A DNA stretch of 61,171 bases, counting the filler, from Sphacelaria rigidula (taxonomy: Eukaryota): assembly GCA_964200075.2 (NCBI GenBank). It is 6 parts of 6 records of this genome, joined end to end, with 100 filler letters (N's around TTAATTAATTAA, not from the genome) between each part and the next. Parts side by side here need not be neighbours in the genome. Positions count along the whole stretch, not along the records: positions 51,061 to 61,171 come from CAXNAA020007114.1; 5 more parts are not named here. The stretch is one strand, 5' to 3'. This document shows positions 51,651-53,620 of this stretch, one piece after another (position 1 is the first letter of the stretch; each line of letters starts with the position of its first letter). The translations under genes were made by a program, and so were the position numbers. The notes below the pieces were generated by a model. It saw only the letters and a program-made list of their open reading frames with translations, ran no database searches and was not told the origin of the DNA.

Positions 51651-53620
51651 TCATGAGTCATCTGCATCCCAAGCGGTGTCCGTGTTCCGTAGAACGGCTG
51701 TTTCGAGTTCGCCTTGGTCGTGTCGTTGGAGGCACCAAGATCCCCTCCGAGCGGTCGGCTCCTCGGTGTAGTACGCATCATCCAAGCGAATCTTAAGGGG
51801 GCTCGGGTCATCAAGGAAACGGATAGAGTAGGAGGAGTGGTCAGATGCAGGGTTGACCGAATGAATTTTTCCCAACCACCACAGTGAATCCAAAGCGTTA
51901 TACCAAAAATACGCCCCTTTCGGCAATCGTTTCCCGTGGAAACACTGCATGTATTGTGAACACGAAAGAAGGCTATATCCTGTCACAACAAACCGCGCTG
52001 AGTGTTCACGTGCCAGTTCTCGAGCGGCAGCTCCCTTGCGCATCGACCGATATCTCTTATTCAGCGAGCGGTGTTGGACGGTATCTCCTACCCAGTACAG
52101 CAATATTTCCCGACGAAAATGACGCAAATCAACCTCACGCTCCCATGTAACACGCATGATACCCTTCCAATGTGCTTGATACATTACCGCTATCTTACCT
52201 CCACGACCACGAACCAGTTGATGACCCGAAATCCTATCTACCTCAACGCGTTCCAGGGGTGCGTCCGCATCTTGGACCATCATATGATACGGCGGAGTTT
52301 TGATCGCATACTTGGTCAACACATACTGGCTAAGCCCTACCGGCAGTGGTTTGAACATGTCAGAAGAGTCATGAGGGGGGATGCACGGTTTGCATCGTAG
52401 CATCGAGACGCGATTTTTCGGTTTCAAACCAGGTTCATCCGTGGGAAAATCTAAATACAAAAGTTTCGCTCCCACCGGACTCTTGTCGGGTGCGGTAGCG
52501 CTCGGACCAACAGCTAAAATTTCCCAAGGACCAGTCCAATTCAAGGATAGTTTCGCCTTCAACACTTTATCCAAAGATGATGATTTCGAGCTAGCCCCTT
52601 GATTGATGGTCTTCACATCGTTATACACCCATGCCCATTGGCCTACCACACCGGGCGGTTATGCACCACATCATCCAACATCGAGTTTGCCCTGGCCACC
52701 TTGGCCAAATTGATTTGGTTCTGTTTTCGCACCACTTCATATGCAAGACGGAGACGATTGCTAACCGACAAATGATACTCTGCAACGTCACGATCCAGAC
52801 TCTCATGTCCACCTGTATTTTTGCGTTCGAATACCGGTAGAGGTAACCGAGGCATGCGTCCAATATGAATTTCATTCGGCGGCAATCCCGTAGCGGCATT
52901 GACTGAAATGTTGTAGTTCATCTGGACAAGGGACAGGTGCAGATCCCAGTCCATCTGTCTCTCATTCGCTACAGCAGCAAGCATCTATGCCATCGTATGG
53001 TTCACTCGTTCCGTTCCATCATTGGTGGAAGGGTGATATGAACTAATAAATATGCGATGGGCACCCAAAAGGTCAGTGACGGCGGCAGAAAGTTTGCCTG
53101 AAAAATGCGGGCCGTTGTCAGATAATCAGCGTTTGGGCACACCCCACAGTGGGATGTACATGTAGACAAGAATGTTGGCGGTACCTTCCGCGGTATAACT
53201 ACTGGGGGGGACGGCGTGCATCCCCGCATGTCTACTAAATCTATCGGTAAACAGCAAAATATAATTATTCCCGCTATCCGTCAGGGGCAAAGGACCAAAA
53301 TAGTCCCACGACACTACTTCACCAGGTCCGTTTGGGAGTGGCATGGAAACAATCGGCCAACGAACTGTTTGACGAGAAGTTTTTGGCGCCTGACACAAAA
53401 GACAACGCCTCACCCACCATCGACAACACTGATCTATGCAAATCCACCAATAAGAACGTTCCAACATCTCGGAGGTTCTAATGGCGCCTAAATGAGTCGA
53501 TGCCTGTGAATGGCATTCGTGTAGAACCCATGGGCGCAGTAGCATCGGGACATAGAGGTGGACGGGTTCATCACCTAGCAAGCGGGCATATCGACTTGTA
53601 GGCTTCCCCCTGGGGAGGGC
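51651..53620 (-). pseudogene. Integrase (HHCC, core, GPY/F) with C-terminal chromodomain (~52247-52092) and Tudor-like domain (~51926-51768)
   Basis: ORFs 53126..54466, 52643..52984 and 51651..52649; VEVDRISGHQ..YQAHWKG..TWEREVDL..ILLYW, then GAYFWYNALDSLWWLGKIHSV..YSIRFLDD. Confidence 0.85.

Follow-up and report, generated by a model that had tools for sequence, protein, structure and literature searches.

A brown-alga Ty3/Gypsy integrase tail joining a cage-reduced chromodomain to a predicted Tudor-like barrel

The DNA analyzed here (referred to as the window) comprises 61,171 nucleotides from the brown alga Sphacelaria rigidula (GCA_964200075.2) and consists of six pieces of ∼10.1 kb with a guanine-plus-cytosine (GC) content of 0.47 to 0.52, which are joined by N44-TTAATTAATTAA-N44 spacers and are not contiguous. 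Its last piece (51061..61171, CAXNAA020007114.1) is filled by a transposable element, both ends of which are cut off. Pfam finds RVT_1, RT_RNaseH, and Integrase_H2C2 on its minus strand, in the order of a Ty3/Gypsy pol gene. We focused on the last 335 codons of this pol, which are still open despite two frame breaks upstream of them. A prediction made earlier from the sequence alone (the original prediction) had described this frame as a Gypsy integrase that ends in a chromodomain followed by a second, Tudor-like barrel. The strings quoted there (KLSLNWTGPW, the chromodomain pattern, and LPKGAYFWYNALDSLWWLGKI...IRFLDD) are all present, on the minus strand. The frame itself, given without a strand as 51651..52649, is indeed open, with true bounds of 51651..52658 on the minus strand. 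The parts of the tail and the remaining pol frames are as follows, with model confidence given as the predicted local distance difference test (pLDDT).

51651..52658, minus strand: tail frame of pol (P0001, 335 amino acids, stop-to-stop frame), with integrase C terminus, chromodomain, linker, Tudor-like barrel, and stop
52524..52553, minus strand: motif KLSLNWTGPW (residues 36 to 45) of the integrase C-terminal module, which we take to be of the GPY/F type
52254..52478, minus strand: conserved spacer (residues 61 to 135) containing RCKPC; mean pairwise identity, 0.667; pLDDT, <50
52089..52253, minus strand: chromodomain (residues 136 to 190), from Pfam Chromo (E value, 0.04) and VIA structural matches
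51930..52088, minus strand: basic helical linker and cap (residues 191 to 243), with a helix at 198 to 218, a strand at 228 to 230, and a helix at 233 to 239
51717..51929, minus strand: Tudor-like five-stranded barrel (residues 244 to 314), from the AlphaFold2 model, Foldseek, VIA, and a profile match
51654..51716, minus strand: acidic C-terminal tail (residues 315 to 335), poorly conserved; mean pairwise identity, 0.325; pLDDT down to 49 to 69
52646..55084, minus strand: RNase H plus the zinc finger and core of the integrase, in frame −1 and interrupted by in-frame stops; RT_RNaseH, 7.8e-32; Integrase_H2C2, 5.9e-11
55095..57065, minus strand: protease region and reverse transcriptase, frame −3; Pfam RVT_1, 1.1e-21, and tblastn

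Full-length relatives (P0002, P0008, and P0011) align to the window along 57065..51660 as three pieces split by frame (57065..55095, 55084..52646, and 52646..51660, by tblastn), which places the tail in frame −3 behind the break near 52646. Given the two frame breaks and the in-frame stops in the middle piece (55084..52646), we regard the window copy as a pseudogene. At the GPY/F-type motif, the family consensus is KLSLNWTGPFKIL. The spacer between this module and the chromodomain is conserved to the level of the chromodomain itself, even though it was modeled at a pLDDT below 50.

The tail frame was modeled with AlphaFold from 28 sequences and without templates, which gave a model that is poor for residues 1 to 132 but of high confidence between approximately residues 140 and 325. 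In this model, the chromodomain stretch (ERVEVDRI...HWKGIMRVTWERE...ILLYWV, residues 136 to 190) forms strands at 140 to 150, 156 to 164, and 171 to 174 and a helix at 175 to 190, i.e., a three-stranded sheet with a C-terminal helix. The Pfam Chromo match in P0001 reaches 14.3 bits, under the curated cutoff of 25.1, and the same family matches 8 of 28 relatives at an E value of ≤0.1 (best E value, 0.0058). When residues 136 to 192 were aligned with VIA-align to whole chromodomains, matches fell within Z scores of 6.5 to 7.3 and a root mean square deviation (rmsd) of 1.3 to 2.8 over 50 to 58 residues, with Rhino (Z, 7.3), CBX1 (7.1), CDY1 (7.1), and MPP8 (7.0) at the top and HP1 (1kna) at a Z of 6.6 (rmsd of 1.3 over 50 residues, 28% identity). 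Identity to the chromodomains of CBX, HP1, MPP8, and CDYL was 25 to 29%; chromo-shadow domains align as well (Z, 6.7 to 6.8), with an identity of only 10 to 13%.

The aromatic cage of HP1-type chromodomains is formed by Y24, W45, and Y48 (PMC3350952). Given that residue 23 of HP1 (1kna) aligns with residue 137 of the model, Y24 corresponds to V138, and since WKGY of MPP8 aligns with WKGI, the third cage residue (Y48) corresponds to I167. The window copy, with V138, W164, and I167, does not have the full HP1 cage, in agreement with the proposal that two of the three aromatics had been replaced. The same holds across the family, where the first position is L, I, or V in 28 of 28 aligned members, the tryptophan is invariant (28 of 28), and the third position is L or I in 27. 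The model and this alignment together indicate that a chromodomain fold is present with its predicted cage reduced to a single tryptophan throughout the family.

This residue pattern is that of the group II chromodomains, in which the first aromatic is missing, usually along with the third, while W45 is retained, and which have been reported only from plant chromoviruses, with their ligand unknown (PMC3605345, PMC3350952). The 28 aligned members of the family fit the group II cage. The group II elements Tekay, Reina, and Galadriel likewise carry the pattern on a Gypsy integrase, but they are known without a second domain and from plants only. We do not retain the chromovirus label of the original prediction, as the chromodomain Gypsy lineages of Ectocarpus are described as unrelated to chromoviruses (PMC12477816); the likeness to the plant elements is one of cage pattern.

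Behind the chromodomain, we folded residues 190 to 335 separately, with 57 diverse homologues and without templates. This AlphaFold2 model (mean pLDDT, 86.3; predicted template modeling score, 0.78) starts with a long helix at residues 200 to 218, followed by a short strand, a short helix, and then a barrel. The helical linker expected between the two domains was thus recovered (helix 198 to 218), and linker and cap are modeled with high confidence (pLDDT of 84 to 97 per 10-residue block over residues 11 to 80 of the tail) at a mean pairwise identity of 0.481. The second barrel lies where it had been predicted: residues 244 to 314, which contain LPKGAYFWYNALDSLWWLGKIHSVNPASDHSSYSIRFLDD as well as the LPKGAYFWYNALDSLWWLGKI...IRFLDD stretch, form five strands (250 to 254, 260 to 268, 276 to 281, 287 to 291, and 308 to 313), the last two being separated by a 16-residue loop, in agreement with the five-stranded SH3-like barrel of ∼60 residues that is typical of the Tudor/Royal family.

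All of the first 10 Foldseek ranks are Tudor domains of PHF1 or PHF19 (probability, 1.00; TMt, 0.51 to 0.70; rmsd, 1.9 to 2.4; identity, 29 to 31%), and these are followed by the Tudor domains of MTF2, PHF20, TDRD3, and BAHCC1. A wide VIA search, which is independent of Foldseek, returned many small barrels at a Z of 5 to 6.4. Behind its top two rows, which are TraI SH3-like domains, the rows at a Z of 5 to 6 are mostly Royal family members (Spindlin, RDM15 Tudor, Agenet, PWWP, chromo-barrel, PHF19, and MTF2), with PHF19 at a Z of 5.3 (rmsd of 2.1 over 55 residues, 27% identity). When the family profile was compared with PDB sequences, eight of the nine matches at an E value of ≤10 were PHF19 (0.012 to 0.019) or PHF1 (0.55 to 1), the best E value of 0.012 being borderline. 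No Pfam Tudor family matched any of the 28 members at an E value of ≤0.1, and Agenet matched 2 of them. Taken together, the structural and sequence searches point to a barrel of the Tudor type, with a predicted fold nearest to the Polycomb-like Tudor domains and a sequence too divergent for the family models. Atlas look-alikes (Spin/Ssty, PTM/DIR17 Tudor, Tudor-knot, and KIF2A-like) all scored below 0.9 and serve as leads only.

The Tudor domains of PHF1, PHF19, and MTF2, which read H3K36me3, are thus the best match of the barrel in both structure and sequence (27 to 31% identity, rmsd of 1.9 to 2.4 over 48 to 55 residues), and PHF19 and the barrel share the pattern G..(V/W)...DG(L)(Y/W)(Y/W)LGKI...(V/R)F.D. 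They differ in that the barrel has the 16-residue strand 4-5 loop, an N-terminal helical cap, and nonaromatic residues at two of four cage positions, and in that it sits on a transposon integrase, whereas the Tudor domains of the three proteins stand beside PHD fingers. For the PHF19 cage, we assume the numbering W50, Y56, F74, and Y80. The aligned positions in the barrel are A255 (S, A, G, or T in the family), W261 (28 of 28 members), F281 (25 of 28), and P287 (27 of 28). As judged from the alignment, W252, Y/F253, W260, Y277, D283, and W308, all of which vary little or not at all in the family, might complete a predicted pocket.

The incomplete match to the PHF19 cage also fits a barrel that would be a nucleic acid-binding or structural SH3-like module, serving as an additional integrase C-terminal-type domain for DNA capture or intasome assembly. 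We consider this unlikely. It would agree with the basic linker in front of the barrel, with the two TraI SH3-like domains as the best VIA rows (Z, 6.4 and 5.9), and with the presence of KOW/Spt5, a single-stranded DNA-bound PWWP, and the Tudor domains of PcrA/UvrD among the VIA matches (Z, 4.6 to 5.4). However, both the sequence identity of 27 to 31% and the lowest rmsd point to PHF1, PHF19, and MTF2, the family profile matches only PHF19 and PHF1 at an E value below 1, and the conserved surface-type aromatics together with D283 would suit a cage better than a DNA-binding face.

To judge how widely the tail is kept, we turn to its relatives. Searches with P0001 identified 31 longer proteins at an E value of ≤0.001 (44 to 58% identity), 27 of which cover at least 79% of the query, while the tail alone matches 269 representatives at the same threshold. 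A profile search for longer proteins with the tail alignment returned four, none of them new to this set. The 28 aligned members are 42 to 59% identical to the window copy. Their mean pairwise identity is 0.70 in the integrase part, 0.67 in the chromodomain, 0.48 in the linker, 0.557 in the barrel, and 0.325 in the C-terminal tail. Within the barrel, W252, W261, and D283 are present in all 28 members and W260, Y277, and R280 in 27. Of the three findings that the original prediction had named as fatal to it, two, the absence of an SH3/Tudor-like fold and the lack of conservation of the segment, were looked for; the fold is predicted, and the barrel is conserved among family members. We regard the folds, their order along the tail, and their conservation as established.

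These data also bear on the notion that the tail is a functionless, decaying leftover whose Tudor likeness arose by chance. Such a view could draw on the window copy being a pseudogene and on Pfam finding no Tudor family, but it is contradicted by the conservation of the tail across the family: 269 representatives match it, residues stay invariant among members that are only 42 to 59% identical to the window copy, the barrel is far better kept than the C-terminal tail behind it, and the fold is predicted confidently in the absence of templates. We therefore consider this explanation highly improbable.

The pairing of the two domains was assessed with hidden Markov models built from the alignment of relatives and applied to 205 stored proteins, a biased sample because all of them had been retrieved with the tail itself. 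The barrel was found in 188 of the 205 proteins, and the upstream part was too short to judge in 88. Among the 100 assessable relatives, 79 contain both chromodomain and barrel, while the other 21 are long enough to include a chromodomain but gave no match to it. Some of this group are chimeric gene models, e.g., P0047 with its WSC and TIMP domains. P0047 and P0012, the latter with a membrane protein-like N terminus, have the tail or the integrase joined to unrelated host-like parts and look like annotation chimeras.

All named relatives come from brown algae, namely, Sphacelaria rigidula (90% identical), Ectocarpus sp., and Nemacystus decipiens. Full-length relatives P0186 and P0193 and P0029 from Ectocarpus carry an N-terminal NADAR domain (E values, 1.9e-40 to 3.6e-48), which places the family in or near a NADAR Gypsy lineage. 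In the window, including 57066-61171, NADAR gave no match at an E value below 1, so that the window copy, unlike these relatives, does not show this mark of the lineage.

Four Gypsy lineages have been described from Ectocarpus, three of them with "putative C-terminal chromodomains" (PMC12477816, Genome Biol 2025). These three include the centromeric ECR-1 and a lineage with an N-terminal NADAR domain, e.g., Gypsy-12_Ec32, while the fourth has a Tudor domain at its C terminus (Gypsy-10_Ec32), termed there the first Tudor on a transposon (PMC12477816). Like the family in the window, these are Ty3/Gypsy elements of brown algae whose integrase is followed by a fused reader domain; in the main text of that paper, however, the chromodomain and the Tudor belong to different lineages, whereas here both are found in one tail. 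The tandem is not described in the main text, and the supplements of the paper or Repbase may already show the barrel. Among full-text literature on Tudor, chromodomain, and Gypsy integrase, only this paper was relevant, and a survey of chromatin evolution, in the part covered, lists fusions of Chromo and PHD domains to transposons but not the chromodomain-Tudor tandem. The claim of a new architecture stands for the tandem, which is so far undescribed in the literature covered, but not for the presence of a Tudor on Gypsy integrases of brown algae, as one (Gypsy-10_Ec32) was already published in 2025, on a lineage described apart from those with chromodomains.

The fusion of chromodomains to integrases is held to target insertion (PMC11541908, PMC3350952), and in MAGGY, the chromodomain brings the integrase to marked chromatin, although this chromodomain is single and has a full cage (PMC3350952). 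By analogy, the most likely role of the tail in our analysis is to tether the integration complex to chromatin. For the brown-alga family as a whole, we lean, with slightly more confidence than doubt, toward a two-part chromatin-binding integrase tail that tethers integration to nucleosomes. In such a tail, the integrase C-terminal (GPY/F) module and the conserved spacer would lead to the cage-reduced chromodomain, from which the basic helix and the small cap would connect to the Tudor-type barrel resembling those of PHF1, PHF19, and MTF2. In active copies, the domain pair would hold the integration complex at nucleosomes and thereby bias insertion sites. We infer that the barrel would be the main mark reader, acting through W261, F281, and D283, with a possible contribution of Y253, W260, and Y277, while the chromodomain would provide a second, weaker contact.

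The likeness to PHF1 and PHF19 makes H3K36me3 the candidate mark, with H4K20me3 or H3K79me2, tied in brown algae to repression and repeats, as alternative candidates. In brown algae, including Ectocarpus, H3K9 methylation (mostly) and H3K27 methylation are reported absent, whereas H3K36me3, H3K79me2, and H4K20me3 are present in Ectocarpus, H3K36me3 being associated with active chromatin and the other two with repressed or repeat chromatin (PMC12477816, PMC13076208). In a more specific proposal, a brown-alga Gypsy lineage would have evolved a bivalent nucleosome tether from a cage-reduced chromodomain and a PHF1/PHF19-like Tudor, one that reads the marks on offer (H3K36me3, H4K20me3, or H3K79me2) in a host group largely without H3K9 and H3K27 methylation, and the barrel would later have been handed to, or acquired from, nontransposon proteins such as P0058 and P0062. 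We regard this proposal as doubtful but worth entertaining.

Several observations weigh against a chromatin-reading tail. The window copy is dead, and 12 of 15 listed differences in its tail frame alter the residue. Neither domain reaches a curated Pfam cutoff (at an E value of ≤0.1, Chromo matches 8 and Agenet 2 of the 28 members, and no Tudor family matches any), and the Foldseek E values of the barrel are only about 0.01. According to the tool's own note, VIA Z scores of 5 to 6 are common among small barrels, and the two best VIA rows are the TraI domains rather than Royal family members. Two of the four PHF19 cage positions appear nonaromatic in the alignment (S, A, G, or T at the W50 equivalent and, in 27 of 28 members, P at that of Y80). 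Finally, the original prediction had suggested that the barrel may be a second or replacement reader. In ECR-1, another Gypsy element of brown algae, none of the three aromatics of the chromodomain is lost (PMC11541908), and since this is so in a host group where H3K9 methylation is reported absent, the loss of the cage does not simply follow from the marks of the host, which counts against a simple replacement story.

The tail may alternatively serve as a tether of another kind, with the barrel docking on a host protein, i.e., on a methyl-arginine or other motif of a chromatin or RNA pathway factor. There is precedent for tethering by host proteins, as the Ty5 integrase is held by Sir4 and the HIV integrase by LEDGF. 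In the latter case, the PWWP domain of LEDGF/p75 does the tethering, and LEDGF is a separate host protein, unlike the fused tail described here. Tudor domains of the SMN and TDRD3 type are among the VIA matches of the barrel (Z, 4.6 to 5.3), and the same barrel ends the non-pol proteins P0058 and P0062, with their long coiled-coil and Ser/Arg-rich regions. On the other hand, the barrel is no more than 9 to 12% identical to SMN and TDRD3, and there is no known partner. We consider docking on a host protein quite improbable and continue to favor the binding of chromatin by both parts of the tail.

Non-pol proteins that end in this barrel, all encoded outside the window, comprise P0058 (612 amino acids), P0062 (828 amino acids), P0183, and P0097 (626 amino acids). 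Aligned from end to end, P0058 and P0062 share 29% identity (E value, 5e-59), and they have neither a chromodomain nor a Pfam match. P0097 has an N terminus similar to theirs, followed by chromodomain and barrel but no integrase. These proteins may come from host genes that either acquired the module or donated it; alternatively, they may belong to another element. The possibility that P0058 is a gag protein was rejected, since it shows no similarity to the frame in the gag position of the window.

Nature offers no clearer examples of transposons that select their insertion sites than integrases with fused reader domains, and we found no earlier description, in the literature covered, of two different reader folds in tandem on one integrase. 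Chromatin immunoprecipitation (ChIP) maps of five marks are available for several brown-alga species (PMC13076208). Given these maps, the lack of the usual H3K9 and H3K27 marks, and the sister lineages that reportedly have just one of the two domains, chromodomain or Tudor (PMC12477816), brown algae allow a direct test of how each reader influences the choice of insertion site. If the bivalent tether exists, a comparison within one genome of where lineages with the chromodomain, the Tudor, or both have inserted would show the choice of reader setting the sites. Moreover, Pfam does not see the barrel, so that other "chromodomain" elements may have comparable second domains that go unnoticed.

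Concerning the state of the element, matching contig pieces at 85 to 100% identity numbered 4,059, 3,238, and 2,984 in three public runs (two studies, one organism); with thousands of matching pieces per run, the family is high copy. Among the 40 of 120 difference rows listed, at least 15 tail-frame differences separate the window copy from the bulk of the other copies, 12 of these 15 being residue changing. As expected, these changes reflect decay of the window copy and not selection on the family. Small length changes between copies were also seen near one of the frame breaks in the public runs. The two ends of the last piece (51061 and 61171) share no repeat, which, as the piece is cut at both ends, is uninformative on the element and leaves its long terminal repeats undefinable. 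The remaining features of the window are the following.

59075..60667, minus strand: 530-amino-acid open frame occupying the gag position, without a Pfam family match
10114-10213, 20326-20425, 30538-30637, 40750-40849, and 50961-51060: artificial spacers (N44-TTAATTAATTAA-N44)

Because the spacer at 50961..51060 is artificial, nothing to the left of 51061 is a true neighbor of the element. A second long open frame, without a Pfam match, lies upstream of the protease and reverse transcriptase region (57485-58537, minus strand). On the 3′ side of the pol stop (51270-51520, minus strand), the sense strand is T rich and of low complexity over a long stretch, with no obvious purine-rich tract before 51061. 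The neighboring piece contains, at 50484-50907 on the plus strand, repeat families D1 and D2, which are unrelated to the element and consist of two copies of a ∼170-base unit, 255 to 259 bases apart and 93 to 97% identical.

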